Source: an uncultured Bacilli bacterium
Lineage (GTDB): Bacteria; Bacillota_I; Bacilli_A; RF39; UBA660
Assembly (NCBI GenBank): GCA_934130105.1
Contig: CAKOXL010000004.1
Span: 1-63,681, forward strand
Direction of reading: 5' to 3'
DNA length: 63,681 nucleotides
In this document: positions 9,375 through 39,668 of the stretch, piece by piece
How the letters are laid out: every line of letters starts with the position of its first letter
Position numbering within the stretch: position 1 is the stretch's first letter
Position numbers and translations under genes: made by a program
The notes under the pieces: generated by a model
The model's database searches: none
What the model was told of the DNA's origin: nothing
The model's input: only the letters and a program-made list of their open reading frames with translations

Positions 9375-9375
9375 A

Positions 9376-16586: not shown

Positions 16587-16974
16587 TTAGTATCACCTTT
16601 AATTCATAAAGAAAGTTGATTGCTTCAAGTGGTGTTAGTGTATTTATATCTATATTTTTTAATTTCTGTTCTAATTTAATATATTTTTGGGGAATTTCAG
16701 TCTTTTTTATTATGTTTTCTATTTCTTTTGTTTCAACTATCTGGATATCTAATTTATGATTATGGAAAACGCGCATATAATCTTCTAGTTTAACGTCTGG
16801 GAAACCACATTTATTTACTTCGTTCGTAAATTTGGTTTGTTTTAATACTACATACTGATTAATAGTATTAGCATCTTCTGATATGAAAATATAAAATTTT
16901 CCATTATGAAAAAGATATAATTTATCAGGATTATCTTGTTTTAATTTTAAATATTCATTATAAATTTTACTCAT
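16579..16974 (-). CDS. MutS domain-I-like small protein (DGR MSL-type accessory)
   Basis: YLKLKQDNPDKLYLFHNGKFYIFISEDANT...CGFP...Y resembles the MutS mismatch-binding N-domain (YxxxKxxxPDxxLLFRxGDFYExFxxDA...AGxP). A GAAGGAG RBS precedes the ATG at 16974. Confidence 0.6.
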   Translation of the reverse strand: MSKIYNEYLKLKQDNPDKLYLFHNGKFYIFISEDANTINQYVVLKQTKFTNEVNKCGFPDVKLEDYMRVFHNHKLDIQIVETKEIENIIKKTEIPQKYIKLEQKLKNIDINTLTPLEAINFLYELKVILND

Positions 16975-17001
16975 ACTACTCCTTCTTTCTAAAAAATATT
17001 T

Positions 17002-17032
17002 AAAAAAAAGCAGCACAAAAAAATTGTACTGC
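17002..17032 (-). terminator. Intrinsic terminator between the TR spacer and the accessory genes
   Basis: Minus strand: GCAGTACA-ATTTTTT-TGTGCTGC (8-bp stem with one G-U pair) followed by T8. Confidence 0.55.
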
Positions 17033-17340
17033 TAATCATGATATCTGATATTCGTATATTACTACTAACCAAATACCACTATTTATGTGTTTCTTTGAAG
17101 TTCAAAGAGGAATTTGATTTCTACGATAAACACTCAAAAATTATCCTTGAATAATTTTAATAGAATGAATTTAATTAAATTTTATATTGTAGTCTAAGAG
17201 CGAGAACGACACGGAACGAAATGTTGGTGTTCGTACCACCTGTGTTGTTGTTGAACGCAAAGGAACCGGCTTCAGTGCCATTGTTCCAATTGCCACCACG
17301 TTCGAACCAAGGGTTAGAAGAATTAACAAAGTTGGCGTTT
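17010..17340 (-). ncRNA. Putative DGR RNA (TR plus about 165-nt spacer ending at a terminator)
   Basis: The TR is noncoding: its frame runs into a stop after VVLALRLQYKI and has no RBS. A noncoding spacer and a terminator hairpin follow it. Confidence 0.45.
17198..17340 (-). repeat. DGR template repeat (TR)
   Basis: 143-bp match to 17554-17696. All differences are at plus-strand T, which is A on the coding strand. The frame is rich in AAC (Asn) codons. Confidence 0.92.
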
Positions 17341-17430
17341 GAAAAATGAGAAAAAAATACTACCTTTACAATCAAATCCCTACATTTGTACTATATATAT
17401 TTCAAAATTACAAATGCCATAATTTAAAGT

Positions 17431-17467
17431 CTCCCGATTTTTTTCAAAAAAGGGAAAAAATCGGGAG
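17431..17467. other. Perfect 13-bp-stem hairpin between VR and TR
   Basis: CTCCCGATTTTTT (17431-17443) pairs with AAAAAATCGGGAG (17455-17467) around an 11-nt loop. No canonical U-tract follows on either strand. Confidence 0.6.
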
Positions 17468-17542
17468 CCATAGAACTTACCGCAGTAAAAAATATGAAGA
17501 TAAAGATTTTATCATACTATCTACTACGGGGTTAATAGCACA

Positions 17543-19972: not shown

Positions 19973-21514
19973 TTATAACTTAATTTTATCAATCATTTTA
20001 GGATAACTATTAATTAGTTCTTTAACAAATATTGACTCATTTTTTGTTGGTACTAATAAATAAGCATAATTTTTGGTTCTAGTTAGGGCAACATAAAATA
20101 ATCTTCTTTCTTCGCTATAAACTTTCTCATTATTATTTGATACAAATCTAAGTACTTTTTCATCTTTTATTTTATTAGGAAAACCAAGTAAATTATTTTC
20201 TAGATTAATAATAATTACATTTTCTTCTTCTAAGCCTTTTGATTTATGGACAGTTAAATAATAGATATTTATATCTGGATTTATTTTGTATATAATCGTT
20301 CCATCTTCTTTTAAAGTGTAATCATCATCTAACAATTTGCAAATATCCTTATTGTTTCTACCAAGAATTAAAATTGGTTTTAATGTATCAGCATATATTT
20401 TTTCTATTAATATTTTGAACTTTTCCTTTATGTTAGTATAATAAATTATCCTAATTGGTTTAGTGAGTGTCTTATTTGAGTGCAAATCTTTATAAATTTG
20501 TCTTTTGTTTTTCATAACAAAATTACCAGCTACTTTTATAAGTTCTTGACTATTCCTGTAAGTATTTTGAATTTTCATTATTTTGGCATCTTTAAAATAA
20601 TTAGAAAAATCTAAAAATAGTGATAAATCACAACCAGTAAAACGATAAATAGATTGAAAATCATCACCAACAACCATTAATTTAGCATCTGTTATAGTAA
20701 GTATATTTTGAATTAAGTTAAATCTAATAAATGATGTATCTTGGTACTCATCAATTATTATATATTTATAATTTTTTTTCATATTATTTCGTTTTACTTT
20801 TTCTGTTGCTTTTATTATCATATCATCAAAATCTATTTCATTATTCTCTTCTAAATATTGGGAGTATATTAGATAAATATTCAATGCTAGTATTAGGAAA
20901 ATTTTTTCATGCTTATACTTTGAATATGAAAATGTTTTTCTAGCTTCTTTTAGAAATTTTGTGAAATCATTTATAGAATAACTGTTACATTTTAATAAAT
21001 GAATAAAAGTTGATAGTAATTTTTCGAGTAATTTAAAACTATTATTATTTTTAATATAAGCTTCTAAGTAGCTATCTTTTATATTCTTTTTAGTTTTTAT
21101 ATCTAAGTAACTTAATACCAATTTCATATAACTATCATAGTTAATAATCGTTTCATAAAAATATTCATGAATTATATCTTCTAAGATATTATCGTCTGCT
21201 ATATTATAAGTATCTTCTGATAATATTTCTAAAGCTAATTTATGGAAGGTATAAACAGATATATCAAGACTAAACTCTTTTTTTATTTTTTCTTTTAAAC
21301 TGGTTGATGCTTTCTTAGTAAATGAAATACATAAAATTTCATTAGGATTTATTTTTTGGTATTTTACTAAATAATTTATCTTACCTAAGATAGTTAATGT
21401 TTTACCACTACCAGCTCCAGCTACTACTAAAAGGTATTTACTATCATCCAATACAATTTTTTGTTGTTCACTATCTAGATAATAACCATTTATTTTTTCA
21501 TTCATTAATATCAC
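19973..21514 (-). CDS. UvrD/Rep-like superfamily 1 helicase (short, 513 aa)
   Basis: Motifs AGAGSGKT, IIIDEYQDTS, VGDDFQSIYRFTG, TYRNSQ, TVHKSKGLEE and FYVALTRTK. Confidence 0.85.
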   Translation of the reverse strand: MILMNEKINGYYLDSEQQKIVLDDSKYLLVVAGAGSGKTLTILGKINYLVKYQKINPNEILCISFTKKASTSLKEKIKKEFSLDISVYTFHKLALEILSEDTYNIADDNILEDIIHEYFYETIINYDSYMKLVLSYLDIKTKKNIKDSYLEAYIKNNNSFKLLEKLLSTFIHLLKCNSYSINDFTKFLKEARKTFSYSKYKHEKIFLILALNIYLIYSQYLEENNEIDFDDMIIKATEKVKRNNMKKNYKYIIIDEYQDTSFIRFNLIQNILTITDAKLMVVGDDFQSIYRFTGCDLSLFLDFSNYFKDAKIMKIQNTYRNSQELIKVAGNFVMKNKRQIYKDLHSNKTLTKPIRIIYYTNIKEKFKILIEKIYADTLKPILILGRNNKDICKLLDDDYTLKEDGTIIYKINPDINIYYLTVHKSKGLEEENVIIINLENNLLGFPNKIKDEKVLRFVSNNNEKVYSEERRLFYVALTRTKNYAYLLVPTKNESIFVKELINSYPKMIDKIKL

Positions 21515-21868: not shown

Positions 21869-24800
21869 TTATTTTATATCAAATTCTTCAACATATTTAA
21901 CATAATCAACCCTACCACGCTTTACAACAAAGCAATAATTATTTGGGATTGTTTCTTTCATTTCTGGTATCTTTTGATTTATTTTAATAGAAAACTGATC
22001 GTTAATACCATTTCCTACCCAAATACCATAATTATTGGTAACACATTCTTTATACCAAGATTCAAACTCATTTTTCTTAATTTTATCAATACTATCTATT
22101 ATAATAAATTTAATTATTCCTAATTTATTAGCTTTTAAAAACATATTATTAAATTCATTTTTATTTTCATTATTTAATCCTAGTTTAAATTGATCAATAC
22201 CAATTATTAAGCATATTAATTTATTAATTTCTTTAGAATTATTATATGCTTCTTTACTGATTAAATAATTACTTAATTCTGTAAATATTAAATCAAAGTT
22301 AGAATCGACATATCTATAATCGCTTTTATTTTTTATATCATAATCAAGCGCATTTATAACTAGTAGAGTTTCATTTTTATATAGTATTTGGTTTATAAGA
22401 GGATTTACTAATGGTTCTGTTTGGTTTACATCATTTGCTGTTATAATAGAGACTGTATTTTTATTAAAGTCAAACTCATTTACTAATAAATCTTGCTTGT
22501 TTAAACCTATTATATAATTGTTAGTATTTAAATATTTTTCTATAACATTTCCATTAACAATTGTTGGAAGCATTGGTATCTTTGGTGCTGATGTAGTATT
22601 ATTGCTATACTCTAAACATTTTTCTTTAATAAATCTAGGGATATCATCCTTATCACTAACTAATGCTGTTTGAAATTCATAGACATCATCATCTTTAAAT
22701 ATTCCACGTCCAAATATTTTACTAGGATATGTTTTATGAACATTACCTAAAATAGTAGTAAAATCGTCATTATTATTTTGAGCTAGTGCATAAATTAAAC
22801 TAAAGTTTTGTTTTAGTTTAAATCTAACACCATTAGGTGTATTAGCTAAAACTATGAAATAGATGCCATATTTGTTACAATCTCTAGTAATACTATTTAA
22901 AATATCATCATATTTATTAGAAAGCTCCGTAAATGCCTCAAAATTATTTATAATAATTATCATTGATGGTACTTGGCTACCACTATTTCTACAGTAATTA
23001 TAATAATCACCATTATAATCCTGAAAAAGATTTTTTCTTTTATTAATGTTCGTTTCTATCATTTTAAATAAATTTTCTAGTTTGTCACTATCATCTGATG
23101 TAACAATATCACCAACAATAGTAGAATCTTTAAACATATTAAGTGCACCTGTACCATAGTCAACTATGTAATAATTTACTTCTTTAGCATTATAGTAAAG
23201 CATAGAAGAATATATTAAGGTTGTTATGAAGTTTTCTTTTCCGGAACCACTTGCACCATATATAATAGTATTGCCATTCTTGGATATTGGAAGTGTTAAA
23301 AGTTTTTGCTCTTGTCTTTTAGGTATATCATATTCACCAATTATTGGATTAATAACAAACATTTGCTTTTCATAATTATATTTAAGCGCTAAATCTTCTA
23401 TTTTTATCATATCAGGTATTTTTTCTAACCATAAAGGTGTTGTTATTACATTTAATTGATTTGCTTCATTTTGTAAATACTTGACAATGTTAACTAACTC
23501 CTCACCATTTGATTTAATGTTAGTTTCTTTCTTTTTCGTTTCAACATTTTTATAAATATACCCAATATTATTAATAAAATCGATATTAGTATCAATATTT
23601 TTTTTAGCTTTTTCACGTGGAATATATTTACCACCTGCCCAACTAGCTTGTCCTAAAACAAACACTTCATTGTAACCAACTTGAAAATAAAATCTACCCG
23701 TTTGTTTTAAATAAGCAGCATCAGGGCATTTTATAACTTCATTGGAATCCGATTTTTCTTGTACACGCATGCAAACTCTAAATCTAGTATTACTCCAAAT
23801 TTGAGGATCTACAACGCCACTTGGCTTTTGCGTTGCTAATATTAAATGAACTCCAAGTGATCTACCTATACGAGCTGTTGATATTAGTTGTTGCATAAAT
23901 TCTGGTTGTTGGCTTTTAAGTTCAGCAAACTCATCACTTATTATAAATAAATGGGATATAGGAATATCAACGATTTTATCTCTATACATTTTTTGATATT
24001 TATAAATGTCTATTGTACTTTCACCAGATAACTCCCTTGCTTTATTGAATAGAGTTTGCCTACGTTTAAGCTCTGATTCAATAGATGCTAAACTTCTTTT
24101 TATCTCATTGCTATCTAAGTTAGTAATTGTGCCAACTAAGTGTGGTAATTTTAAACCTGTTGTTTTATTTTCAAAAGCACCAGCTAAGCCACCACCTTTA
24201 TAATCTATTAATATAAATTGAACTTCATATGGATGGTAATTAATAGCCATAGATAGAATATAAGTAATAATAAATTCACTTTTACCACTACCCGTCGAAC
24301 CTGCTATTAAACCATGTGGGCCATGATATTTTTCATGCAAATCAATGCTAATTTTTTCTTGATTTTTTCCTAGACCAACTGGGGCTTGTAAACTTAGTAT
24401 TGGATTATTGTTTTGCCATCTATTAATAGAGTTTAATTGTTCAACTTTACCAACATCAAACATTTCTAAAAAGCCTAACTTATTAGGAAGTTTACCGTCT
24501 TTTGATGATTGAATTTCAATTGGAATATTAGCAAGTTTTTTTACAGTACTGTAGTAATCTAAAACTTGATTTATATCGTATTTAAACTTTAAAGGTTCAA
24601 TATAATATTGCCCAACGTGCATTTCTCCTGTACCATTGTTTAAAGTTATAAAAGCTTTACATTCACTTGGCAAATCCGTAATTTTCTTATCTATTATAAC
24701 CATAGAAAATCCCAAATTAACTTTAGATTTAACTATATTATTTATAAAATCGTAATTTCTGATTGCTTTATAGCTATCGGTTATAATTAAATAAGTTTCA

Positions 24801-26449
24801 GTTAATTCATCTCTTTTAATTTCTCTATTTAATTCTTTTCTTTGATTAAAGATTCTATCTAAATAGTAGCATACTTCTTTATATTCATCATTGTTAGTTG
24901 CATAAAAACGGATTTCTCTATCATTAGTAAATAAATGTGGCAAATCTTTTAAATAAGCGTAATCTTTTTCTTTTTCTGAATCGGTAAATATAACTATTTT
25001 TAAATTATCATAGCTTTGATTGGTGATACATTCTAAAATGATATTTTTTAAATATTTATTTGTTTCACTATAATTACCAATTAATCCAGTAACATAATTA
25101 TCATATAGAGAATAAATAATTGGAACATTTGAAAGTAATTTTGGTTCCGTACCTAGTGAATGTAACATATCTTTTAAATTATCTTGAAATAAAGAAAAAT
25201 GTTCTTCTGGATATTTAATATCTATTTTCATAGGATAGTTACCAATACCAAGTCTAATAACTAAATAATCATCGTCTTCTATTCTTCTTTGCCATAAAGT
25301 AGTATATTTGTTTAAAATAATTTCTTCGCATTCTTTTAATCCTGGGTAATTATTATTTAGTATTTCTGATTGCCTGTTTTTAGCATTTTTTATTTCTTGG
25401 CGTTTATCCTCAATATAAGCGCTGTATTTTTTTTGTCTTTCTTTTTCTTTCTTTTTTCTATTTCTTAATTCAACTTTTTTTGATATAGTCGGCCAAATAA
25501 GTACACTTGCAAACATAGCACCACACATAACAAGTGATGGAATAGCATTTTTGATACTTGAATTACCATTCATTATATTGTTAACAGAAGTATATGCTGA
25601 CACTAAAGATGTCATTGACATTGTTAGCATTGGTCCGATTGTTAAAAGAAGAGATGATTCTTTTTCTTCTGCTTTATTAGGTGGTGCATCAACATTTAAT
25701 GTTAATGTTTGAATTTTAGGAATGAATCTTGGTGTTTTATGGAAGTAATCTGATTCATCGTATAGTTGTATATCTTGTTCTTCTTGTTCCACTAACTCCT
25801 CATTTGATTGATTTTTGATATCAATAAGATTTGTTAATAATAAATTTGCCTGAACTTCTAAATTATTAGAATTATTTAAATATAGATAATATATGTCGCA
25901 TGCTTCATGCTTTTTTATGACATAAAGCATAATACCTTCAATAAAAACAATATCAGCATTTTTTAGTACCATTTTATTTACTAATCTCATATTGCTAACA
26001 TAAATTGGAACCTTACTATTATCATCAATGATAACTAAATCTTCATTTTCTTTTTTGATAGTTATATTAACTTCATTAAGAAGAGGCGAAGTTATTGAAC
26101 CTAATTGTCCTATCTTAAGTCCGGTTAAAATATAATTAGTTATATCATAGCAATTATATTTTTGAAAAACATTAGAGCAATATAAAATGATATTTTCATT
26201 AGTTTCTTTATTTTTTAAAAATATAAATTGGTTATCTATTAACACCTTAAATGGTTCTATAACACCATTATTTATAATATAGACATCATCATTACTAATT
26301 AAGTGCCAAGTATTATCAGTTGCTTCAATATTAATTAAATTTTTTCTATTACCAGCTTTATCCAAATCTGTTATCCAATAACTACCACTAATCTGTTCTG
26401 GTAATATTAAGTCTATTTTTTTATCTTTTTTTATAAGTGATACTCTCAT
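21869..26449 (-). CDS. essC: T7SSb FtsK/SpoIIIE-family ATPase EssC/YukB
   Basis: FHA-like N-terminus and two TM segments. D1 has an intact Walker A/B (GSTGSGKSE, IISDEFAEL, ATQKP). D2 has GASGSGKEN and a NNFE Walker B. D3 has no P-loop. Confidence 0.9.
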   Translation of the reverse strand: MRVSLIKKDKKIDLILPEQISGSYWITDLDKAGNRKNLINIEATDNTWHLISNDDVYIINNGVIEPFKVLIDNQFIFLKNKETNENIILYCSNVFQKYNCYDITNYILTGLKIGQLGSITSPLLNEVNITIKKENEDLVIIDDNSKVPIYVSNMRLVNKMVLKNADIVFIEGIMLYVIKKHEACDIYYLYLNNSNNLEVQANLLLTNLIDIKNQSNEELVEQEEQDIQLYDESDYFHKTPRFIPKIQTLTLNVDAPPNKAEEKESSLLLTIGPMLTMSMTSLVSAYTSVNNIMNGNSSIKNAIPSLVMCGAMFASVLIWPTISKKVELRNRKKKEKERQKKYSAYIEDKRQEIKNAKNRQSEILNNNYPGLKECEEIILNKYTTLWQRRIEDDDYLVIRLGIGNYPMKIDIKYPEEHFSLFQDNLKDMLHSLGTEPKLLSNVPIIYSLYDNYVTGLIGNYSETNKYLKNIILECITNQSYDNLKIVIFTDSEKEKDYAYLKDLPHLFTNDREIRFYATNNDEYKEVCYYLDRIFNQRKELNREIKRDELTETYLIITDSYKAIRNYDFINNIVKSKVNLGFSMVIIDKKITDLPSECKAFITLNNGTGEMHVGQYYIEPLKFKYDINQVLDYYSTVKKLANIPIEIQSSKDGKLPNKLGFLEMFDVGKVEQLNSINRWQNNNPILSLQAPVGLGKNQEKISIDLHEKYHGPHGLIAGSTGSGKSEFIITYILSMAINYHPYEVQFILIDYKGGGLAGAFENKTTGLKLPHLVGTITNLDSNEIKRSLASIESELKRRQTLFNKARELSGESTIDIYKYQKMYRDKIVDIPISHLFIISDEFAELKSQQPEFMQQLISTARIGRSLGVHLILATQKPSGVVDPQIWSNTRFRVCMRVQEKSDSNEVIKCPDAAYLKQTGRFYFQVGYNEVFVLGQASWAGGKYIPREKAKKNIDTNIDFINNIGYIYKNVETKKKETNIKSNGEELVNIVKYLQNEANQLNVITTPLWLEKIPDMIKIEDLALKYNYEKQMFVINPIIGEYDIPKRQEQKLLTLPISKNGNTIIYGASGSGKENFITTLIYSSMLYYNAKEVNYYIVDYGTGALNMFKDSTIVGDIVTSDDSDKLENLFKMIETNINKRKNLFQDYNGDYYNYCRNSGSQVPSMIIIINNFEAFTELSNKYDDILNSITRDCNKYGIYFIVLANTPNGVRFKLKQNFSLIYALAQNNNDDFTTILGNVHKTYPSKIFGRGIFKDDDVYEFQTALVSDKDDIPRFIKEKCLEYSNNTTSAPKIPMLPTIVNGNVIEKYLNTNNYIIGLNKQDLLVNEFDFNKNTVSIITANDVNQTEPLVNPLINQILYKNETLLVINALDYDIKNKSDYRYVDSNFDLIFTELSNYLISKEAYNNSKEINKLICLIIGIDQFKLGLNNENKNEFNNMFLKANKLGIIKFIIIDSIDKIKKNEFESWYKECVTNNYGIWVGNGINDQFSIKINQKIPEMKETIPNNYCFVVKRGRVDYVKYVEEFDIK

Positions 26450-26466
26450 AATATACCTCTTACATA

Positions 26467-26988
26467 TTAAATAAAATGGCTTTTATTATTAATATATATT
26501 CCAAATTTTAAAACAGCTATTTTCATATTTATTTTTTTAGATAGTTCATCTTGAATGTAGTTTAAAATGTCACATATGAAATTTTCTTGTTCTTCGGTAC
26601 AATCAAGACTATTATAGTGAAATGCTATAGCAATTGAATCATTTGGTGCAGCTTGTTCTTCCCTATCACCATATTCTATATATTTACTTTCTGTTTTAGC
26701 AAATAATAATTTAGAGATATTCTTATTTAAAAATGCATATAGTTCGCTAGTATTTCCTTTTTGGTAGTTTTGATAACTTGTTTTTAAGTAATCTAGTTCA
26801 TCTTGACTTAGATTCTCTAAATGAATGCCATTTAACAAGAAAAAATAATTTGATACTAATGAAATGCTAGTTGGATTTTCAATATTTTTTGATTTAATAC
26901 CTGCTTTTATTATTTGACTTTCTAAATTTTCTAGTCCTAAATTATTATATATACTATTAAAAATTATTAATTTTAAATGTTCTATCAT
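26467..26988 (-). CDS. Hypothetical 173-aa cytoplasmic protein (candidate immunity protein or chaperone for the upstream effector)
   Basis: AAGGAG RBS then ATG at 26988, directly after the effector stop at 27003. No TM segment and no recognisable motif. Confidence 0.55.
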   Translation of the reverse strand: MIEHLKLIIFNSIYNNLGLENLESQIIKAGIKSKNIENPTSISLVSNYFFLLNGIHLENLSQDELDYLKTSYQNYQKGNTSELYAFLNKNISKLLFAKTESKYIEYGDREEQAAPNDSIAIAFHYNSLDCTEEQENFICDILNYIQDELSKKINMKIAVLKFGIYINNKSHFI

Positions 26989-27002: not shown

Positions 27003-30000
27003 TTAATTCCAATGTATAGATGATGTTCCAATTCGAAAACAACCACCGTCAAATAAATCTTCAAATTTAATATAATATTTATTTCCCCATGAACTTATGA
27101 TAAATCCATAATCAGCTATACCTGTTATAGTAACAGAATGTCCTACTATACTTGGAGTTTCATTTCCCCTATCTTCATGCCAATCATTTGTAGAAATAGA
27201 ACGATAACTTTGAGGATCATAGGAATATGCAACTATTTGGTGAGTTGAATCTATTAATTTATAATAACCCATATCAAGTGCAATTTCATCATCATTTAAT
27301 ACCTTAGTCAATAAAGCTATTATTTGTTTTTGCTCTTCAATTGGATATTTAGTTGTATCAAAATTATCAATAAAGAAACTAGATTCATAACTCAACTTTT
27401 GATCTTTACTCTTTAAGAATTTATTTATTGTATCATCATCTCTTCCTTCACTTCCTGACATATATTTTTGTTTTTTTGCTTTCAATGTATCTCTTCCATA
27501 TATATCAATAGTTTCTGGACTAAAATATTCTTTATTTAATTCATACCCTCCATTAATATTTTTCTTTATAAAATGTCCACCATTTTCTTCACTATTTGCA
27601 AACACATATAAGTCTAATAATAATTCAGAAGAATTGAATTGTCCATTTTGTTTATACATATCATAACCAAATATTTTTTTAAAATAACCTTCCCTGTTCC
27701 TAAATAAATAATATATATTATTACATACACTTGCATATGAACAAGCACCAGCTGCATTTACAGTATCCATTATTACAGCAGAATCGTTAGATGTAAATCC
27801 CATGTTTATAAGCTTATTTTTTAAATAAGTATACTCTTGGGTACTTATTCTTTTAAAATGAGGAATAACTTCTCCATTTTGCTTTGCTTCTTTAATCATA
27901 CTTATAGCTGTACTATAATTATATTTTTTACCGTTTAATTCATAAACAGATAATTTTTCAATAGCCGCCTGGTCTACTCCGTAATCACCTTCTATATGAT
28001 CATTAAAGAAATTATATGTTTCAAGCCTTTTATCAGTAAAATCCAAATCTAGTAAATATTCTTGTATATACTCAGTTGGTATATCGGATATTTTTTGTTT
28101 TACATCATCAACTGCTATTTTATTAATATCATCAGTGCTAAAATACTCTTTTAATTGTTTAATTCCAACATTTTTTCCGAGTCTTTGGTCAATAAGATTA
28201 ACCAACGAATCTATGTCGCCATAGTAATTTCTGACATCGTTTGCATCTGAGTTAAATTCATGTTCGAATAATTTTAATTCTCTATGAATTTGTAGCATTT
28301 CTAAATCTTGAATGGTATAGGATGGATTCTGATTATTTTTCATTTTTGTTATAAAATCTTGATATTCTTTTGTTTTTGAAATTTCTAATAAATCATTATA
28401 CCTTTCCATTTTTTCTTGAACTGTATTTATTTTTTCTTTTTTTGCATTTGTAATATTTAATTTAGATCCAATAGCATCAAAAAAGTTATATTTATATCCG
28501 GCAATACCATTTTCACTTTTTGTTTTAAATCCCGATAAAGTTAGTTCATTTAAATCATGCGTACTAACTTCAATAATACCCGTATTCTCATGGTATGCAA
28601 AATATTTATATGTACCATCTTCTTGTTTAATTGAAGTAATATTTATTAATTCTACTTTTCCATTTGATTTTAATCTATATAAATCGGTTCCACTTATAAT
28701 ATCTGATTCTGTTGCAGATAAACTTTTAACAAGAGACAATATATAAGATTTTGCTTCTACATATCCTAATTTTGATAAATCAGCTACTTCATTTAGTTTT
28801 AATAATTTACTCTCAACTAAATTAGATAAATTATCACTGGAAACATCAGTATTTGCTATGTTAGAGCGAACTGTATCTAAAACATTATTATAACTTTTTT
28901 TAATATAGTTTAAACCTTTATCAATTTCTAAAAGTTCATTATAAAACGATTTTTGATCATCAAGATTTGCATTAAAAAATGGATATTTACCTGATTGTGC
29001 ATCTTCCAAAGTGGTAAATTTACTAATAGGATAAAACATATCTGTTTGTTCACCTTGTGATATTTTTGCTAAATCATTTAAATAAGAATTGTTTTTAGTT
29101 GCATCAGCTAGAAAATATTTCCCATCAACTTCAAATTCAACCCACGCATGATTTGCTGATTTTATTTCAGAATTAATTCCAACACTTAAAAGTAATTCAT
29201 TATAAATTTTAGACCAACTTTTGCATATAATCTTACCATTTAAAATAGAATTATCATTAATGTCTTTACTATCAGTTAATATTTTAAATCCAATATTTTC
29301 ATTCGGATTACTATTTAAATTTTCATCAAATCCTACTCTTTTAGATAATTCTAAATATAAAAATCTTGCTTTTTCAAAATCAGTTAAACCACTAGGAATT
29401 GACTCTATTATATTTTGTTTTAAATCTCCGACGGTTGTAATATTATCATTTTCATTTACTTTTTTAATCAAATCTGTATATTTTAAATTACGTAATTTTT
29501 GACTATTAATGTTTACGATATTCTTTATATTATCTTTAATACTAGTTAACTCTGATAAAATAGATGTTTTTATATTTAAGAATTTATTTTTTACATTAAG
29601 TACAAAATTTTTCAATCCAAGGTACTTAGGATTAATGTTTAAGTTTTTTGCTATATTTGATACTTTGCCGTTTATTGAATCATACATTGTCATTATTTCA
29701 TGATCTAGTAATGCCATTTCATTTTTAATTTTTAAAAATTCTGTTTCACTATCATATATTTCTATTGTGTTTTCTGAATTCAATTTTTCAATGAATGCTT
29801 TATATTCTGGGGTATTAGTTTTATCAACTAATTCTTTATATCTATCCATCTTTTCTTGTAATATTTTTTCTAAATCAATATTTGAATTTGATACTTGCTG
29901 TTTACCAGAATCAGTTATACTATTACTATTAAGTTTATCATTTATACTATTTATTTCATCACTAAGCAATGCTCTATATTCTGGTGTATCAAGTTCTTTT

Positions 30001-32753
30001 GGTAAATTGTTAAACAAATCAATTTTTTCTTGTAATATCTTTTCTAAATCGATATCTGAATTAGATATTTTTTGTTTACCAGAATCAGTTATACTATTAC
30101 TATTAAGTTTATCATTTATACTATTTATTTCATCACTAAGCAATCCTATTTCATTTTTAATCTTTAAAAATTCTGTTTCACTATCATATATTTCTATTGT
30201 GTTTTCTGAATTCAATTTTTCAATGAATGCTTTATATTCTGGGGTATTAGTTTTATCAACTAATTCTTTATACCTAGCCATTTTTTCTTGTAATATTTTT
30301 TCTAAATCAATATTTGAATCAACACTGTTAAAATCTTGTTCTTTTATTTTGATACCTGACTCATCCATTTTAGTTACATCAGAAATTAATTCGTCCATCT
30401 TATTTCCTATTACATTGGCCTTTTTATTCATAGCATCAAAATCAGTTAAATTATTATTAGATATAAAATCATTAAATGCATTTTCTAAATTATCATTATA
30501 ATCTTTTAAATTTATAGTATCTTTATTTACTGCACTTGCAAATTCAACTAATGTTCCCAGTTTAATACCTTTTTGTTTAAATTTAACTGCCGTTCCTGCT
30601 AAGGTGGCGGTAAAAGAAGCACCATTCATTAGCCCCGCTGTAACTGAACCTAATACACCACTATATAATGCTTCTTTGCTAGTTTCTGCTAAATCAATTT
30701 CATCACCAAAAAAAACATAATTAGAAAAAGCCTCAACATATGTTTGTGAAAATTCTTCAAGCCCTTCAGATACAATATGTCCAATTGCATTACCAGCACT
30801 TTTAGCAACAAGCTTTCCACACTGACTAATTGCCAATTTTGTTGCAATTGACTCACCTATATTTTCTGTTGCTCTACTTAAAATAGCTGATATACCAGTA
30901 CTTGATGCAATATGTTTAATACCACCCATAAAAACTTCTAAAGCAAAATCTGAAGTAGCTACTACCGTAGCATTGGCAATAGATGCTTTATAATCGTTTC
31001 CTGCAACTAAACTTTGGTTAGCTGTATTTCCAAATGAGCTAATAAGCATAGTTGCTTTTACACCAGCTTGAATTAAACTAGATGATCCGCCTGTCAAACA
31101 GCTAAGTATTACGGTAGGTGCCATATTACCAGTAGCTTGACCTACTTGATAATCGAAAGTTAAACCGCTTTTATTAGCTAAATAACTTCCTATATACATT
31201 TGAGTATATTGATTATCTGTTATTATTGGATTATCTTTATCCATTATAACTCTATAAGTGTTTTCAAATCCTTCTAAAAAGGATTCAACACCATCACCAA
31301 ATCCCTGTTTAAAGGTTGTTGCATATTTTGAAAAACCATCTTTAAAACTTATATCTAATGCATAACTACAACTGTTTAAGCTTCGTTCTATATCCGTTAT
31401 ATAATTGTCTGCTACTTCTTTACCATAAACTTTTTTTAAATTGCTGTAAGTATTGATTATAGAAATAACTGAATTTGATGAATCAGTTACCAAATATTTT
31501 TCATCTATAATATTATAAGCATTATATGCATCAATTAAATATTTATTTATTTCATTTAAAATTTCTAAATCTTCACTAGAAAACTTTTCGGTAATAGATG
31601 CTATTTTATTATTTTCATCTATATTAGATTCACTATATTCTTTAATAAAATCAGAAAAGGCATTTTGATCGGTTATTTTTGCCATATATGCATCTGCTTC
31701 TGCCTTACCTTTATTTTGATTTATCTGATCTTCATATGCCTTTAGCATATCTTTTACAGCTTTTTTACCTTGCGTTTTTGCTAAATACATAGCAAGGTAT
31801 TTCTCTTCATCCGATAAATATTGATAACTAGAAGCAATATCAGCATAACCACTTTTAAAGTATTTATAAAATTCTGTAACATCTGGTATTTTTTCACTTT
31901 CTTGATACTGATTAACAAATTCCAAGAAATCGCTACTTTGCATCATTTCCAAATATGGTTCTTGTTTTATTTCTTGCTTTGCAGCATATATTAATGCTTT
32001 ATTTGTAGCTATTTCTGTTTCATAATAATTCAATTCTATTAAATATTGCTTTAAATCAACATTTGTTTTATTTTTTTCTTTTGTCAATAGTTCACTAAAC
32101 CATTCGGGATTATCTTTTAAATAAGAAAATATCTCATCGTTTCCGAATATCCAATAGCCATCATTTGTATTATTAGGATCATTTTTAAATATTATAGCAG
32201 TAAGTTCATCATAATTATCTTCTATAAATTGATCCATACTGGATTGATATTTTTCTTCTAAAGCTGCTTTTGCTTCTATATATTGACTAATCAACGTTTC
32301 ACTTATATTTTTTTGCTCTTCGCCTGTTTTTTGCTCTTCATCTGTTTTTTGTTCAATATCATCCATTTGGCTGGCATTAAAGTTAGCAAACTGTTCAACA
32401 TTTAAGGTATCACTTTCTATGTTAAATAACTTGCTATCAATATAATTTCTTATATTATCATCATTGATATTACCTAATGATATATTTTTAGCAAGTACAT
32501 TTTCTATATTAATAGCTAATGCATAATAACTATCTAACCAGTCTATTATTTGTTTGTATGAATTATTAACATTTGAATATAGATCAGATAATTGTGATTC
32601 CATATTGCTTAAAAGAGATGAGTATGGATGATTTTTTAAATAACCATTAAGATAAGTTTGATATGTGCTATTAGAAAAGGTGGAATATTCATTTTTTAAC
32701 TGATTTAACTTGTCATTCAAGTTATTAAAGTCAACTTTATATATAACGCTCAA
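27003..32753 (-). CDS. Giant (1916 aa) LXG-like T7SS effector candidate with a Gly-rich hydrophobic region, tandem repeats, a transglutaminase-like Cys-protease core and a C-terminal papain-like domain
   Basis: TTG start with a GGAAAGGG RBS. Helical N-terminus with L35-N-G37. GKIICKSW...NHAWVEFEVDGKYFLADAT (Cys-His-Asp core). GACSYAS ... VGHSVTITG..SSWG (papain-like Cys/His). Confidence 0.65.
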   Translation of the reverse strand: MSVIYKVDFNNLNDKLNQLKNEYSTFSNSTYQTYLNGYLKNHPYSSLLSNMESQLSDLYSNVNNSYKQIIDWLDSYYALAINIENVLAKNISLGNINDDNIRNYIDSKLFNIESDTLNVEQFANFNASQMDDIEQKTDEEQKTGEEQKNISETLISQYIEAKAALEEKYQSSMDQFIEDNYDELTAIIFKNDPNNTNDGYWIFGNDEIFSYLKDNPEWFSELLTKEKNKTNVDLKQYLIELNYYETEIATNKALIYAAKQEIKQEPYLEMMQSSDFLEFVNQYQESEKIPDVTEFYKYFKSGYADIASSYQYLSDEEKYLAMYLAKTQGKKAVKDMLKAYEDQINQNKGKAEADAYMAKITDQNAFSDFIKEYSESNIDENNKIASITEKFSSEDLEILNEINKYLIDAYNAYNIIDEKYLVTDSSNSVISIINTYSNLKKVYGKEVADNYITDIERSLNSCSYALDISFKDGFSKYATTFKQGFGDGVESFLEGFENTYRVIMDKDNPIITDNQYTQMYIGSYLANKSGLTFDYQVGQATGNMAPTVILSCLTGGSSSLIQAGVKATMLISSFGNTANQSLVAGNDYKASIANATVVATSDFALEVFMGGIKHIASSTGISAILSRATENIGESIATKLAISQCGKLVAKSAGNAIGHIVSEGLEEFSQTYVEAFSNYVFFGDEIDLAETSKEALYSGVLGSVTAGLMNGASFTATLAGTAVKFKQKGIKLGTLVEFASAVNKDTINLKDYNDNLENAFNDFISNNNLTDFDAMNKKANVIGNKMDELISDVTKMDESGIKIKEQDFNSVDSNIDLEKILQEKMARYKELVDKTNTPEYKAFIEKLNSENTIEIYDSETEFLKIKNEIGLLSDEINSINDKLNSNSITDSGKQKISNSDIDLEKILQEKIDLFNNLPKELDTPEYRALLSDEINSINDKLNSNSITDSGKQQVSNSNIDLEKILQEKMDRYKELVDKTNTPEYKAFIEKLNSENTIEIYDSETEFLKIKNEMALLDHEIMTMYDSINGKVSNIAKNLNINPKYLGLKNFVLNVKNKFLNIKTSILSELTSIKDNIKNIVNINSQKLRNLKYTDLIKKVNENDNITTVGDLKQNIIESIPSGLTDFEKARFLYLELSKRVGFDENLNSNPNENIGFKILTDSKDINDNSILNGKIICKSWSKIYNELLLSVGINSEIKSANHAWVEFEVDGKYFLADATKNNSYLNDLAKISQGEQTDMFYPISKFTTLEDAQSGKYPFFNANLDDQKSFYNELLEIDKGLNYIKKSYNNVLDTVRSNIANTDVSSDNLSNLVESKLLKLNEVADLSKLGYVEAKSYILSLVKSLSATESDIISGTDLYRLKSNGKVELINITSIKQEDGTYKYFAYHENTGIIEVSTHDLNELTLSGFKTKSENGIAGYKYNFFDAIGSKLNITNAKKEKINTVQEKMERYNDLLEISKTKEYQDFITKMKNNQNPSYTIQDLEMLQIHRELKLFEHEFNSDANDVRNYYGDIDSLVNLIDQRLGKNVGIKQLKEYFSTDDINKIAVDDVKQKISDIPTEYIQEYLLDLDFTDKRLETYNFFNDHIEGDYGVDQAAIEKLSVYELNGKKYNYSTAISMIKEAKQNGEVIPHFKRISTQEYTYLKNKLINMGFTSNDSAVIMDTVNAAGACSYASVCNNIYYLFRNREGYFKKIFGYDMYKQNGQFNSSELLLDLYVFANSEENGGHFIKKNINGGYELNKEYFSPETIDIYGRDTLKAKKQKYMSGSEGRDDDTINKFLKSKDQKLSYESSFFIDNFDTTKYPIEEQKQIIALLTKVLNDDEIALDMGYYKLIDSTHQIVAYSYDPQSYRSISTNDWHEDRGNETPSIVGHSVTITGIADYGFIISSWGNKYYIKFEDLFDGGCFRIGTSSIHWN
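29717..30319. repeat. Intragenic near-identical DNA repeats: two about 172-bp copies (29717-29888 and 30148-30319) bracketing two identical 70-bp copies (29901-29970 and 30075-30144)
   Basis: Read directly from the sequence. They encode the repeated modules DLEKILQEK..TPEYKAFIEKLNSENTIEIYDSETEFLKIKNE and SDEINSINDKLNSNSITDSGKQ. Confidence 0.9.
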
Positions 32754-32775: not shown

Positions 32776-33282
32776 TTAAACAAAATTTATAATATTTCTT
32801 TCAATTTCTTCCATAGCCATTTTATTATTTTGTATTTCATTTTCTTTTGCATTTATTTTATTTTGTACATCATTATTTATTTTGGTTACTGTTCTACTTT
32901 TTTTAACTACTTTATTTATTGGTTCATCAAATGTTCCAACATTTTCCCAATCTTCATATTCTTCGGTAACTTCGTAATACAATTGTTTTTTTAATTCTAT
33001 TATTTCTTTAGTTAAGTTTTCATTATCTATACTATATTGTTGATAAGATTCTATTTTAGGTATTAATGTATATTTATAATCATTTAGTTTTGATTCTAAT
33101 TGTTCATAAATTTTTGTGAATTCTTCTAAACCATTTTTTATATTTTTTTTGCAATCATTTATCCAAAGGGATGAAGCCATAATCGAACTTGCTAGTTCTT
33201 TACTTGAACTTCTATTTATTTTGTTAAGGCAATCATTAATAGCTGTTTTTAAATATTCAACATTTATACTATTTAAATTCAT
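32776..33282 (-). CDS. Helical 168-aa protein, candidate LXG-effector partner or targeting factor
   Basis: All-helical, coiled-coil-like, lacks a WxG motif, and lies immediately upstream of the effector. Confidence 0.45.
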   Translation of the reverse strand: MNLNSINVEYLKTAINDCLNKINRSSSKELASSIMASSLWINDCKKNIKNGLEEFTKIYEQLESKLNDYKYTLIPKIESYQQYSIDNENLTKEIIELKKQLYYEVTEEYEDWENVGTFDEPINKVVKKSRTVTKINNDVQNKINAKENEIQNNKMAMEEIERNIINFV

Positions 33283-33284
33283 AT

Positions 33285-33605
33285 TTAATCAATCCTAGAC
33301 ACTTTGTAAAATATATTTGAAAACTTATCTTTAACTACTTTTTCTGTTTCTTGATAATGATTGTATGCATTTTGCATCTTTGAAGTTATATTTAAAATTT
33401 GATTATTTATTTCATCTATTTGGTTATGCATTTGATTTATATCTTTTGTATAGTTATCAGATACTATTCCACTCCATGCCGAATCTTTTTGTAATGATGT
33501 TCCAAATTGAACATAATTGTTCAAATTTTCATTCATTTCTTTATTTAGACTTTTTAGGTTATCTATACATGAATTGAGTTTTTGATAATCAACATTTAGT
33601 GCCAT
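33285..33605 (-). CDS. WXG100-like small helical protein (W-S-G)
   Basis: 106 aa with a central DSAWSG and a C-terminal YQETE (YxxxE). Confidence 0.55.
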   Translation of the reverse strand: MALNVDYQKLNSCIDNLKSLNKEMNENLNNYVQFGTSLQKDSAWSGIVSDNYTKDINQMHNQIDEINNQILNITSKMQNAYNHYQETEKVVKDKFSNIFYKVSRID

Positions 33606-33613
33606 AAGACCTC

Positions 33614-33907
33614 CTATATATTAATTTTTTTACTAGTATATATTTCATCTAATAAATCATATAAACCTGGAATATTTTTTAAATATATTTGATATTTTAA
33701 CATTTCAGAATATAGTGTATTTATGTTTTCGTTATAAAGTTTTTGCATATCATTTAGGCAATCATTGGCATCACTATTACCATTCCAAGCTTCTGCTATA
33801 TCATTAGCTATATCTAAAAAATGTGATATTTGATTTTTGAATTTTTCTACACACTCTAACATATTATTAGATGTATTTTTTATATCATCTTTATCAACAT
33901 TAACCAT
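33614..33907 (-). CDS. WXG100-like small helical protein (W-N-G)
   Basis: GAAGG RBS then ATG at 33907. Central EAWNG and C-terminal YDLLD (YxxxD). Confidence 0.55.
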   Translation of the reverse strand: MVNVDKDDIKNTSNNMLECVEKFKNQISHFLDIANDIAEAWNGNSDANDCLNDMQKLYNENINTLYSEMLKYQIYLKNIPGLYDLLDEIYTSKKINI

Positions 33908-33977: not shown

Positions 33978-34274
33978 TTATTGGTTAAACACTTGATTAA
34001 CTTCTTGATCAACATTTCTATAATTAGAAACTGCTGTATTTATACTTTTTACATCGCCTTCAATTATAGAAACTACATCCAACAATCCTGTATATAATTG
34101 ATTAAGAGATTGTCTAGCTGTCTCTGCAGCATCTCCTCCCCAATCTTCACCATCCATTCCAATTTTTGAAAATAGATTTCTATTCATATCTTCTGTAATA
34201 TCTTTAATTTCTGTATTTAAACCATTCAATTTAGCAGCACATTCTTCTAGTTTAACATAATCTGTATCAATCAT
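33978..34274 (-). CDS. WXG100 family protein (W-G-G)
   Basis: 98 aa with a central GEDWGGDAA and C-terminal YRNVD (YxxxD). Confidence 0.8.
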   Translation of the reverse strand: MIDTDYVKLEECAAKLNGLNTEIKDITEDMNRNLFSKIGMDGEDWGGDAAETARQSLNQLYTGLLDVVSIIEGDVKSINTAVSNYRNVDQEVNQVFNQ

Positions 34275-34288
34275 ATTTTTCTCCTTTC

Positions 34289-34579
34289 TTATGCGACATA
34301 AGTACTATTTGCATTTTGAGCTTCCTCATAATCCTGTACAGCACTTTTCAATACATTACCTATTAATATTGCAGTTTGAAATAGGTTTTCGATTTCGTTG
34401 CATTGTTGTGTTAGTCTTTCAGAATAATTAGTTGCATCTTTTCCTGCCCAAGCTTCTTGGATTTCAGTATTAACATTTTCAACTTTTTTTATTAAGTCAA
34501 CTAAAGATTCTGATTTAGAAATTATTTGTGTCCCGATATTTGTTGCATTGTCTGATACATGTATACTTTTTGAATCCAT
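34289..34579 (-). CDS. WXG100 family protein, EsxA/YukE-like (W-A-G)
   Basis: 96 aa with a central EAWAGKDA and a helix-turn-helix hairpin layout. Confidence 0.8.
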   Translation of the reverse strand: MDSKSIHVSDNATNIGTQIISKSESLVDLIKKVENVNTEIQEAWAGKDATNYSERLTQQCNEIENLFQTAILIGNVLKSAVQDYEEAQNANSTYVA

Positions 34580-34591
34580 TATTCCACCTCC

Positions 34592-34843
34592 TTATATAAT
34601 TACAATTTTAGTTCCGTTTTGAATAGAAGAATCTTTAACCATAATACTATCATCAAAAATAATACCAGTTTCTTTATCAATAAATGTAACTTGTCCTTTT
34701 TGATCATATATACCATTTGATAATTGAACTAGTGATGATAAAACTGTTTTTTTTATCGTACCTATTTGTTTATTGATCGGAATATATGCGTCGAACTCCA
34801 TTTCTATACATGGAACTATAAAAGTAATCAAGTATTTATTCAT
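34592..34843 (-). CDS. esaB: EsaB/YukD ubiquitin-like T7SS protein
   Basis: 83 aa with a beta-grasp-like pattern ending in ...SSIQNGTKIVII. It is the first gene of the T7SS operon. Confidence 0.65.
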   Translation of the reverse strand: MNKYLITFIVPCIEMEFDAYIPINKQIGTIKKTVLSSLVQLSNGIYDQKGQVTFIDKETGIIFDDSIMVKDSSIQNGTKIVII

Positions 34844-38484: not shown

Positions 38485-38741
38485 TTTATCCCTCTTTTCT
38501 AAAAATATTTTACCACATTTTTAACATTATTAGTAAATTATAGAATAAAAATATTTAAATTATTGGTGTAGAATTTAACTATTCAATAGCCACATATAAA
38601 TGCATAATTTATTATCTTCTATTACTTTAAATAGTGATAAAATTTAATACACTAGGATTTAAAAATTGGGTATCAAAGTCATTAATAATTATTAAATTAA
38701 TTATATTTGATATGTTATAATAACTACAACAGGTGATAAAA

Positions 38742-39668
38742 ATGGATTCTATAATAAAGAAGATAGACTTCTTTAGTAATGATGCTATCTTTGAAGCAAT
38801 AAATGACAGTAATTCTGGAGCAATTTTAAAAAAGGTAACAGACAATCAAAAAACATATTTTTTAAAAATTGTTCCAAAAGATAGTATAGATATAGATAAA
38901 ATTTTAAAGACAATAGAAATTTATAAAAATAATAATATTAACACAGTTCAACTATTATCATATGGGACTACCAAAGATAAAGTATATTTAATTTATAATT
39001 TTATTAATGGTAATGCACTTAATACAATTTATGATGAATATGATATGGCTAGTTATTATGATATTGGTCTTCAAATTGGAAATAGTTATAGAATAATAAA
39101 TTTTAACTGTAAACCAGATAACATTTTTAGGCAAGATTATAATATTGATGACTTGATAAATTCAATAACATCTAAATTCATTGATTTATATAATGGAAAA
39201 CTAGCATATTTAAAAGATATTATTGCGGAAGATAAAATAAAACTGTTAACAAATAAAATAAAAGAACTATTACCATGCTTTTATAATGAGGATAAAGTAT
39301 ATATTCATGCTGATATGCATCCTAAAAATATAATGATAGATAAGAATAATCAACTATATATTATTGATATTGAATCTTTTCATACTGATTACTTTGTTAT
39401 GAATTTTAGATGGTCTATTATGGCTTCTTTTAAAAATGATAAAAATAAAGCTTTCTTCAAAGGATTTATAGATGGCTACTATAATCATACAATAAGTGAT
39501 GATTTCGATAAACAATTAGTTATTATTTTAATAATTAATTTTATGGAACATATTATTAACTTTAGTGATGGTAAAAGCTTAGAATATATTAGGAATTATG
39601 CTACTAAAGTAAATGAGATATTTAACACTATTAATATTTATAGCAAAAATAATAAAATTACATTTTGA
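38742..39668 (+). CDS. Aminoglycoside/choline-kinase-like phosphotransferase (APH fold)
   Basis: IHADMHPKNIMID...IIDIE catalytic and Mg-binding motifs. An AGGTGA RBS precedes the ATG at 38742. Confidence 0.7.
   Translation: MDSIIKKIDFFSNDAIFEAINDSNSGAILKKVTDNQKTYFLKIVPKDSIDIDKILKTIEIYKNNNINTVQLLSYGTTKDKVYLIYNFINGNALNTIYDEYDMASYYDIGLQIGNSYRIINFNCKPDNIFRQDYNIDDLINSITSKFIDLYNGKLAYLKDIIAEDKIKLLTNKIKELLPCFYNEDKVYIHADMHPKNIMIDKNNQLYIIDIESFHTDYFVMNFRWSIMASFKNDKNKAFFKGFIDGYYNHTISDDFDKQLVIILIINFMEHIINFSDGKSLEYIRNYATKVNEIFNTINIYSKNNKITF

Follow-up and report, generated by a model that had tools for sequence, protein, structure and literature searches.

A giant mosaic gene beside EssC in an uncultured Bacilli genome encodes a predicted type VII secretion toxin without an LXG domain

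The genome of an uncultured bacterium of the Bacilli carries, in the same gene cluster as the secretion ATPase EssC, a single gene for a protein of 1916 amino acids (aa). The question raised by this locus is what kind of protein this is, and whether it belongs with the LXG effectors of type VII secretion systems. The DNA analysed, called the window here, is the whole 63,681-nt stretch of contig CAKOXL010000004.1, in which the gene lies at 27003-32753 on the minus strand, stop codon included; related loci and related proteins are given L numbers (L001, L003) and P numbers (P0001) respectively, and all window features are on the minus strand unless stated otherwise. Our preferred reading, to which we give a probability of about 0.7, is that the gene product is a giant polymorphic antibacterial toxin, a predicted substrate of the adjacent type VIIb secretion system (T7SSb) and a representative of an undescribed non-LXG effector family.

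The open reading frame (ORF) is a real gene because it runs for 5.7 kb in DNA of approximately 25% G+C and has homologs, which excludes chance. The start codon is TTG, with a ribosome-binding site (GGAAAGGG) approximately 12 nt 5' of it, and homologs from other samples begin at the same residue, with either MSVIYKVDF or MNTIYKVDF. An earlier note on this DNA had listed a number of motifs along the protein, and nearly all of these were found within a base or two of where it had placed them.

The whole protein gives no usable match in Pfam, NCBIfam, PHROGs or PDB sequences. A word-indexed search with the full protein returned three relatives, to which an exhaustive profile search added P0021 and a genome scan added L003. 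The N-terminal 815 aa or so are common to all close relatives at 42-49% identity, and beyond this point the proteins diverge completely. In P0002 the last domain is of an ART-like R-S-E type, P0003 carries domains of the ART-like and HD types, and P0001 contains an extra domain, the transglutaminase-like cassette of the window protein, an ART-like domain and an HD end, all of these being motifs read from the sequence with sub-threshold Pfam scores. The papain-like end of the window protein is found again in L003 and P0021. This is the architecture of a polymorphic toxin, with a constant N-terminal region and exchangeable C-terminal cassettes, and the multidomain layout that the earlier note had proposed is borne out by it.

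Mosaicism is visible within the window protein too. Over the first 112 aa it shares 92% identity with P0002, with P0003 nearly identical there, while over the whole 815 aa the identity is approximately 49% for both; a breakpoint falls near aa 115, the first part corresponding to 32418-32753. The closest C-terminal relative is P0021, which has a near-identical C-terminal half (E 1e-208 over the last 417 aa) and an N-terminus of only 45% identity. The cassettes are preceded by a linker module (DLEKILQEK...TPEYKAF...) of which P0001, P0002 and P0021 have one copy and the window protein has extra ones in tandem. Three tandem copies occupy aa 816-1045 (29619-30308), at aa 816-901, 902-959 (shortened) and 960-1045, and the repeats are visible in the DNA as well, as 174 nt at 84% identity and 209 nt at 92%. 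A fourth and diverged copy (aa 1438-1500; 28254-28442) stands before the last cassette, which agrees with the three to four copies counted previously.

The last cassette is a papain-like domain that forms the C-terminus (aa 1591-1916; 27006-27983), recognised from its invariant residues, an AlphaFold2 (AF2) model and Foldseek comparison. A search with aa 1481-1916 found 17 homologs, none of them with a Pfam domain. Invariant in the 18 aligned sequences are, in domain numbering, G112 and Q115 (YGVDQ), C191 (GACSYAS), H392 and S408-W409-G410. In the window protein YGVDQ lies at aa 1591-1595 and SSWG at aa 1887-1890, C191 is Cys1671 (codon 27741-27743) and H392 is His1872 (VGHSV, codon 27138-27140). 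The AF2 model of the segment, made from 17 sequences, has a mean predicted local distance difference test (pLDDT) score of 81.5, with values above 85 for most of residues 110-436, and it places the cysteine at the N-terminus of a helix (190-203) and the histidine in a strand (389-400). Among the best Foldseek matches of this model in the PDB are the phytochelatin-synthase-like Alr0975, CtaG, PeiR and a Josephin-type deubiquitinase; calpains and a C39 peptidase rank lower, and every protein named here is papain- or transglutaminase-like. At the sequence level the domain matches nothing in Pfam, NCBIfam or the PDB, and a profile of it found no PDB sequence either. The modelled structure supports a papain-like fold class, in which no family is assignable. 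The papain-like C-terminal domain claimed by the earlier note is upheld by the invariant Cys and His, the confident model and the papain-like character of the top fold matches.

Downstream of the toxin gene is a gene for a 173-aa protein (26467-26988; the length counts from Met19 of a 191-aa ORF), which is a candidate immunity protein. It is 62% identical to the product of the gene after the L003 toxin, where the papain-like domains of the two toxins are 51% identical, and 31% and 22% identical to the products of genes that follow two distant, stand-alone papain-like homologs. Members of the family follow papain-like toxin genes in L003, L004 (twice), L006, L008, L009, L013/L014 and L024, and those in L008, L009, L013/L014, L024 and the second pair of L004 are at loci outside the set from which the profile was built. 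With the window included, the partner gene follows the papain-like domain in nine of ten distinct loci, L023 being the exception, while P0001, which has an HD end and no papain-like domain, is followed by an unrelated 98-aa gene that is not of the 173-aa family. Because the gene covaries with the domain across loci, the papain-like domain and the 173-aa protein are marked as a putative toxin/immunity pair, and the neutralising partner that had been suspected in the downstream gene behaves as a cognate immunity gene should. Since the aligned members of the immunity family, as read from sequence, contain no signal peptide and no hydrophobic segment, the site of action of the papain-like toxin would probably be cytoplasmic.

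A second enzymatic cassette lies between the tandem linker modules and the diverged copy. This is a transglutaminase-like cysteine-protease domain with a C-terminal extension of approximately 180 aa (aa 1100-1437; 28443-29456), in which Cys1177 (GKIICKSW), His1202 (NHAWVEF) and Asp1217 (LADAT) are encoded at 29223-29225, 29148-29150 and 29103-29105. The word-indexed search returned no relatives for this segment, though P0001 is approximately 90% identical there, which is probably an artefact of a candidate cap acting on N-rich sequence; homologs were therefore taken from local phmmer searches against the collected set of proteins, which placed the domain in a further eight members of the family. 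A local alignment of ten sequences with 22-28% identity shows invariant Cys, His and Asp residues (C92, H117 and D132 in the segment numbering of nine aligned sequences); an Arg upstream of them and a D-L...G..T.GF motif downstream are likewise invariant. Sub-threshold matches to Transglut_core occur in five of nine members, one member matches the related DUF553 at E 3.7e-4, and a profile of the domain found no match among PDB sequences. A transglutaminase-like Cys-His-Asp core in canonical order, as the earlier note had read it, is supported by this alignment, with an invariant triad and a near-full, if sub-threshold, alignment to the Pfam profile.

Elsewhere the same cassette stands at the end of the protein. 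Together with its extension it forms the C-terminus in six of eight proteins (P0026, P0027, P0063, P0072, P0094 and P0123), and in all four loci that were fetched these transglutaminase-terminal toxins are followed by a shared family of 81-97-aa proteins (L011:4252-4521, L031:6234-6479, L032:8892-9182 and L033:9898-10191) with the motif FF.LD....IL..LG. Because it is terminal there and followed by a conserved small family, the cassette appears to behave in those loci as a toxin with its own putative immunity family.

The genes around the toxin gene identify the locus as a type VII secretion locus. They form a module of nine genes in the order EsaB-like, four WXG100-like, 168-aa gene, toxin, small gene and EssC. 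The 1526-aa EssC (21869-26449), the FtsK/SpoIIIE-type ATPase of T7SSb, matches TIGR03928 at E 3e-289 (962.7 bits against a cut-off of 778.4) as well as PF01580, and is 77% identical to the EssC of L001. The first gene encodes an 83-aa protein (34592-34843), 79% identical to its L001 counterpart, that has no Pfam match and looks like the ubiquitin-like EsaB/YukD in its size, position and sequence character; its homologs, at 28-37% identity, directly adjoin EssC-like genes in seven loci (L004, L008, L012, L024 and L031-L033).

The four WXG100-like proteins have an invariant WxG in the alignment of the paralogs, and three of the four carry YxxxD/E near the C-terminus. The 96-aa protein (34289-34579; W-A-G) matches PF06013 below cut-off (E 7e-4) and TIGR03930 at E 2e-5. 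The 98-aa protein (33978-34274; W-G-G, with YxxxD near the C-terminus) passes the PF06013 cut-off of 27.3 bits with 30.1 bits and also gives a weak score, 17.4 bits against a cut-off of 26, with TIGR04197 of the Lap1/DUF3130 family. The 97-aa protein (33614-33907; W-N-G, YxxxD) was found by tblastn with the 97-aa protein of L001, to which it is 66% identical over 33617-33907; its ORF runs to 33949, and homologs begin at Met15. The 106-aa protein (33285-33605; W-S-G, YxxxE) scores 29.3 bits with PF06013, against the same cut-off of 27.3. Between these genes and the toxin gene, directly upstream of the latter, is the gene for a 168-aa helical protein (32776-33282), a candidate chaperone or targeting partner, which shares 65% identity with the protein encoded at this position in L001 and has no family match in Pfam, NCBIfam or PHROGs scans. 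The T7SS context claimed by the earlier note is confirmed by the EssC gene directly downstream of the toxin and its partner and by the WXG100-type small helical genes upstream. The nine-gene module is kept in L001 and L003, which share one chromosomal neighbourhood, different from that of the window. It seems to be a minimal T7SS module, in that only EssC, EsaB-like and WXG100-like genes are recognisable in the window, L001 and L003.

The papain-like toxins of related loci vary widely in size. Stand-alone forms of approximately 400 aa, without the 815-aa N-terminus, are P0010 (L004:8001-9209), P0004, P0007, P0011 and P0013. In L004 the stand-alone P0010 directly follows EssC and an EsaB-like gene and has its own immunity gene, after which comes a family member that is full-length, at 1100 aa, and has a second toxin/immunity pair. 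Among the EssC-linked examples the largest observed is a 3253-aa family member (L024:7454-17212) on a 152-kb contig, which has a papain-like end and the central domain described next, lies beside EsaB-like and EssC genes and is followed by an immunity-family gene.

The constant region contains a central all-helical domain rich in Gly, Ala, Ser and Thr (aa 470-745; 30519-31346), delimited by profile search, motif alignment, AF2 helices at 474-721, fold matches in BFVD and hydropathy. Within it, G, A and S make up 30-35% of aa 500-730 or so, and no other part of the protein is less polar. In the window protein the 19-residue Kyte-Doolittle mean peaks at 1.25, which is under the usual transmembrane threshold of 1.6. 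In 150 family members the highest means have a median of 1.47 within the central domain against 0.97 outside it, with 22% reaching 1.6. The peak of 1.25 and the family median of 1.47 rule out an integral membrane segment; such values fit a soluble helical bundle able to insert into membranes, and not a resident membrane protein. Of the 'Gly-zipper hydrophobic core' that the earlier note saw here, the Gly/Ala/Ser-rich stretch stands and the hydrophobic core or membrane segment does not, the region being only weakly hydrophobic. It had also called the stretch 'membrane-inserting or tape-measure-like', and the second term comes closer to the mark, as the region is a helical domain whose conservation extends to virion proteins of phages.

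The spread of this domain defines the wider family. A profile of the N-terminal 815 aa found 458 representative proteins (clusters at 50% identity) at E <= 1e-3 among 1.84 billion, many of them from gut metagenomes. What the 458 share is a core at profile positions of approximately 455-735, which is the Gly-rich region, an all-helical domain of approximately 270 aa. It has no model in Pfam-A, NCBIfam or PHROGs. The nearer family members are proteins of 600-1800 aa. The flanking sequence contains EssC in the window and at L001, L003, L004, L008, L012, L024, L031, L032 and L033. Nearer members with enough visible flank are within a few genes of both an EssC-like and an EsaB-like gene in L004, L008, L012, L024, L031, L032 and L033, with L013, L020 and L023 as the only exceptions.

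The distant members, at E values around 1e-13 (HMMER, whole library), are proteins of 2000-3100 aa that carry MuF_C, LPD38 or PBECR5. Iyer et al. (2017, PMC5512222) placed LPD38 among the polyvalent proteins of the phage type, virion proteins to which the same authors attributed ejection into host cells. The central domain is present in six IMG/VR viral contigs, in proteins of 1500-2500 aa; in L029 its gene follows those for terminase, portal, major head and virion structural proteins and precedes a tail fibre gene, and in L027 a portal gene is upstream. The toxins and the phage polyvalent proteins have in common the motifs G.G.G..F..G, Y..GNM.P, S..GN....L..G, G.SE...LG.I, EG.EE..Q.Y and EA.YS..G..T.G, and since the alignment shows these shared motifs the match is not merely compositional. 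In BFVD the best fold match of the 815-aa model is a 'Phage MuF C-terminal domain-containing protein' (E 6.4e-5, probability 1.0). PolyVal ART and LPD proteins come next, and tape-measure and minor tail proteins appear with lower probabilities. The link to phages comes from profile searches and the IMG/VR contigs only, and tblastn with the central domain against plasmid and phage GenBank records gave no match. Judged by the shared motifs and profiles, the central domain and a domain of phage virion polyvalent proteins are homologous. It is possible, though rather doubtful, that the domain is a portable membrane-translocation module, its evolutionary origin unsettled, that serves phage virion proteins and non-LXG T7SS toxins alike in taking enzymatic cargo through the cytoplasmic membrane of a target bacterium. 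One further identity was considered and rejected: the order of gene sizes (small ones, a giant, then a large one) had suggested a phage tape-measure protein, but EssC is the large neighbour here, WXG100 proteins are encoded by the small genes and PHROGs returned nothing.

At its other end the constant region begins with a helical hairpin and a conserved G94-x-I...I-R-x-Y motif (aa 1-110; 32424-32753), the presumed T7SS-targeting end, and these are its conserved N-terminal features in an alignment with P0001, P0002, P0059 and P0123. The AF2 model of the N-terminal 815 aa, made from 61 sequences, has a pLDDT of 72.9 and is all helical, with the hairpin formed by helices 10-39 and 46-90. A mechanism can be proposed from these parts. 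By analogy with LXG-Lap complexes (PMC9600955), the hairpin would pair with the co-encoded WXG100-like and 168-aa helical proteins, of which at least three carry the YxxxD/E motif, into a pre-secretion bundle that EssC would recognise and export. The conserved helical region, chiefly the domain at aa 470-745 or so whose homology was described above, may then act as a delivery module that inserts into or crosses the target membrane and brings the C-terminal cassettes in. The C-terminal half consists of exchangeable enzymatic cassettes, each after a repeated linker module, and the linkers might be recombination or processing junctions. The terminal papain-like domain, genetically paired with the 173-aa gene, would be a toxin that requires self-protection, acting on a cytoplasmic substrate and neutralised in the cytoplasm by the 173-aa protein.

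Several results weigh against this reading. The Foldseek matches of the papain-like model are weak, with E >= 2e-3 and template modelling (TM) scores <= 0.43, at probabilities of up to 1.0. Transglut_core (PF01841) aligns to the other cassette over profile positions 12-107 of 108 and scores 12.3-14.9 bits, below the cut-off of 23. Three family loci (L013, L020 and L023) have no EssC in their flanks. No EssA, EssB/YukC or EsaA, the usual membrane core components of T7SSb, could be recognised in the 30 ORFs of the window that a non-exhaustive scan covered; their sequences may have diverged or their genes may lie elsewhere. For the central domain, a delivery role is suggested by homology, composition and analogy. 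Finally, an HMM search at E <= 10 found the 81-97-aa family missing from the window and from L001, in both of which the transglutaminase-like cassette is internal. This absence is not what one would predict if each cassette were simply a toxin with its immunity gene next to it. The matching immunity gene may lie at another place in the genome, the cassette may need processing to become active when it is internal, or its role may be that of a processing protease.

How far, then, can other readings account for the same observations? By its genomic logic the protein resembles an LXG effector, yet by every feature tested it does not appear to be one. PF04740 (LXG) is unmatched by the full protein at E <= 0.01, by aa 1-815 at E <= 1 and by 40 members of the wider family, and no NCBIfam model matches the N-terminal 815 aa. 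The tripeptide L35-N36-G37 is indeed present near the N-terminus, but L-N-G occurs at this position only in the window protein, P0002 and P0003, with L-D-S in P0001, P0021 and L003, S-S-S in P0059 and N-S-S in P0123. Foldseek matched the whole 815-aa model to no solved structure in the PDB (best E 0.66), LXG complexes included, and a profile-profile comparison of the toxin N-terminus with the WXG100 paralogs of the same locus gave a probability of 2%, that is, no detectable relationship. The LXG-like N-terminus proposed in the earlier note does not survive these comparisons; the setting that it named as contrary evidence, homologs in conjugative cell-wall hydrolase contexts, was not what we saw, relatives being repeatedly linked to EssC. 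It is nevertheless conceivable that this is a genuine but very divergent LXG effector, its LXG domain having drifted out of reach of the profiles, with the upstream small genes as equivalents of Lap1 and Lap2. Such a protein would have a helical N-terminus with a hairpin of approximately 90 aa and several small helical partner genes upstream, as here, and the genomic logic is the same as in LXG clusters, where Lap1 (DUF3130/TIGR04197) and Lap2 (DUF3958) genes lie upstream (PMC9600955). Among the five small helical genes upstream one gives a sub-threshold TIGR04197 score and none matches DUF3958. Set against the unmatched PF04740, the unconserved tripeptide, the PDB comparison and a conserved N-terminal region of approximately 815 aa where approximately 200 aa would be expected, these likenesses leave a divergent LXG effector unlikely.

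Two other readings keep the locus and change the function. Both cysteine-peptidase-like domains might be non-toxic, either as cell-wall (stem-peptide) hydrolases or as autoprocessing proteases that serve secretion. EssH, a dedicated hydrolase that helps T7SSb substrates cross the wall, is an analogue of the former, and the processing peptidases of polyvalent and MARTX toxins of the latter. Papain-like, NlpC/P60 and transglutaminase folds do include many peptidoglycan amidases, and the fold matches include the pseudomurein endoisopeptidase PeiR; T7SSb has been reported to possess a dedicated cell-wall hydrolase (PMC13059805), and processing peptidases in polyvalent proteins were proposed by Iyer et al. 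(PMC5512222). The linker modules before each cassette are possible cleavage sites, and the transglutaminase-like cassette has no cognate immunity gene in the window. The papain-like domain, however, is closely tied to a dedicated downstream gene in nine of the ten distinct loci, and the 173-aa protein, without an export signal, fits a cytoplasmic toxin better than a wall hydrolase. The transglutaminase-like cassette is elsewhere terminal, with its own conserved small downstream gene, as expected for a toxin, and we consider two non-toxic enzymes decidedly improbable. In the remaining reading the gene product is a polyvalent protein of a prophage or conjugative element, beside EssC by chance or exported by it as an element-transfer function, that protects incoming DNA rather than kills competitors. 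The central domain in common with phage polyvalent proteins and the multi-enzyme architecture would suit such a protein, and a MutS-I domain gene, a diversity-generating retroelement (DGR) and a PD-(D/E)XK transposase-like gene lie 5-12 kb away. The module itself, on the other hand, has no phage or conjugation genes, PHROGs returned nothing for the protein or its small neighbours, the tblastn search of plasmid and phage records was empty, and the module is flanked by housekeeping genes in the window and by the genes for peptidase M16 and MurL in L001. EssC and WXG100 proteins are hallmark T7SS parts, and a cognate immunity gene argues for a toxin that is harmful to its producer. A mobile-element protein is thus highly improbable, and a T7SS-linked polymorphic toxin remains the reading that we prefer.

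The window is chromosomal, with genes for IF-2, NusA, ProS, PriA and a PASTA kinase, and the closest genome is a metagenome-assembled genome (MAG) labelled 'uncultured Bacilli bacterium' from Hadza gut samples. The module is flanked by iPGM and thyX genes on one side and a UvrD-type helicase gene on the other. A 317-320-aa gene without family assignment follows EssC in L001 and L003, and a 216-aa gene with a HEMRH (HExxH-type) motif lies upstream of the module in L001 (L001:6734-7384); neither has a counterpart in the window. On the opposite strand, approximately 4 kb upstream of the module, the window has a 311-aa kinase-like ORF (38733-39668, plus strand) with weak matches to APH, Pkinase, RIO1 and ABC1, and in L032 a 233-aa kinase-like gene (9182-9883) comes two genes after the toxin. 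As EssB is a pseudokinase, these ORFs could be divergent EssB analogues; the L032 protein is closer to the PASTA kinase of the window than to the 311-aa ORF. The DGR lies at 15211-19453, between the module and housekeeping genes. It comprises a reverse transcriptase gene (15211-16242), a bAvd gene (16227-16586), a small MutS-I-domain gene (16579-17016), a template repeat (17198-17338) and a variable repeat (17554-17694) at the 3' end of a 636-aa gene without a family match (17543-19453), and every mismatch between the repeats falls on an adenine of the template copy. A PD-(D/E)XK family transposase-like gene (14225-15055) and a gene for the 513-aa UvrD-type helicase (19973-21514) flank this region.

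The general kind of system, a T7SS polymorphic toxin with an immunity gene, is well known. As far as our searches show, what is undescribed in the libraries and literature covered is the combination of a non-LXG N-terminus, a conserved region of 815 aa, serial cassettes and a link to phage polyvalent proteins, together with two cysteine-enzyme toxin families that have no models and their putative immunity families. Type VIIb effectors have mostly been found through searches for LXG domains, and a family of 458 clusters escapes such searches. The route by which T7SS toxins with cytoplasmic targets enter recipient cells has been stated to be unknown (PMC9600955). Lying between the targeting end and the cassettes, near-hydrophobic and homologous to a phage domain, the central domain is a specific candidate for cell entry, and if this is true a T7SS toxin lineage and phage ejection proteins would share one entry device. 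The locus also offers two candidate cysteine-enzyme toxin families, each with a putative immunity family, and an apparently minimal T7SS module.

The protein can be compared with several known systems. With the polyvalent proteins (Iyer et al. 2017, PMC5512222), MuF-type toxins included, it has in common a giant polypeptide that strings together several enzymatic domains, which in polyvalent proteins are ARTs, peptidases, nucleases and HD domains. The conflict-related domains here are transglutaminase-like and papain-like in the window protein and ART-like and HD in relatives, and the two groups share the homologous central domain of approximately 270 aa, with its motifs and a BFVD probability of 1.0. 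It differs in lying in a chromosomal T7SS module and not in a virion or conjugation module, in having no MuF, ArdC-N or LPD Pfam domains and in having a cognate immunity gene. At the level of its enzymes, the papain-like domain resembles those of clan CA (Alr0975, PeiR, calpain and C39) in the order of Cys and His, with Cys at the N-terminus of a helix and His in a beta-strand. Papain carries N-S-W-G, to which the S-W-G turn after the His of the window domain can be compared. The domain is set apart from these enzymes by the additional invariant YGVDQ, 76 residues before the Cys, by the lack of a sequence-level match and by TM scores that stay at or below 0.43. The other cassette has the Cys-His-Asp order and spacing of the transglutaminase-like superfamily (PF01841), C..W...Y..LL...G ... 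H.WVE ... AD.T, invariant in ten homologs, and differs in scoring below the gathering threshold.

The LXG toxins (TelA-E, EsaD, YxiD and EsxX) are similar in that the gene lies beside EssC and WXG100-type genes with several small helical partner genes upstream, and in the combination of a helical N-terminus, a variable C-terminal toxin, an immunity gene directly downstream and recombinational mosaicism. The window protein differs from them in having neither a PF04740 domain nor a conserved LxG, in a conserved N-terminal part of approximately 815 aa instead of 200 aa that includes an extra conserved central domain, in at least two enzymatic cassettes in series, split by repeated linker modules, and in its length of 1916 aa, where typical LXG toxins have 400-800 aa. 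The glycine-rich element differs as well: in the glycine-zipper LXG toxins TelE and EsxX it is the C-terminal toxin, whereas here it is a conserved internal domain.

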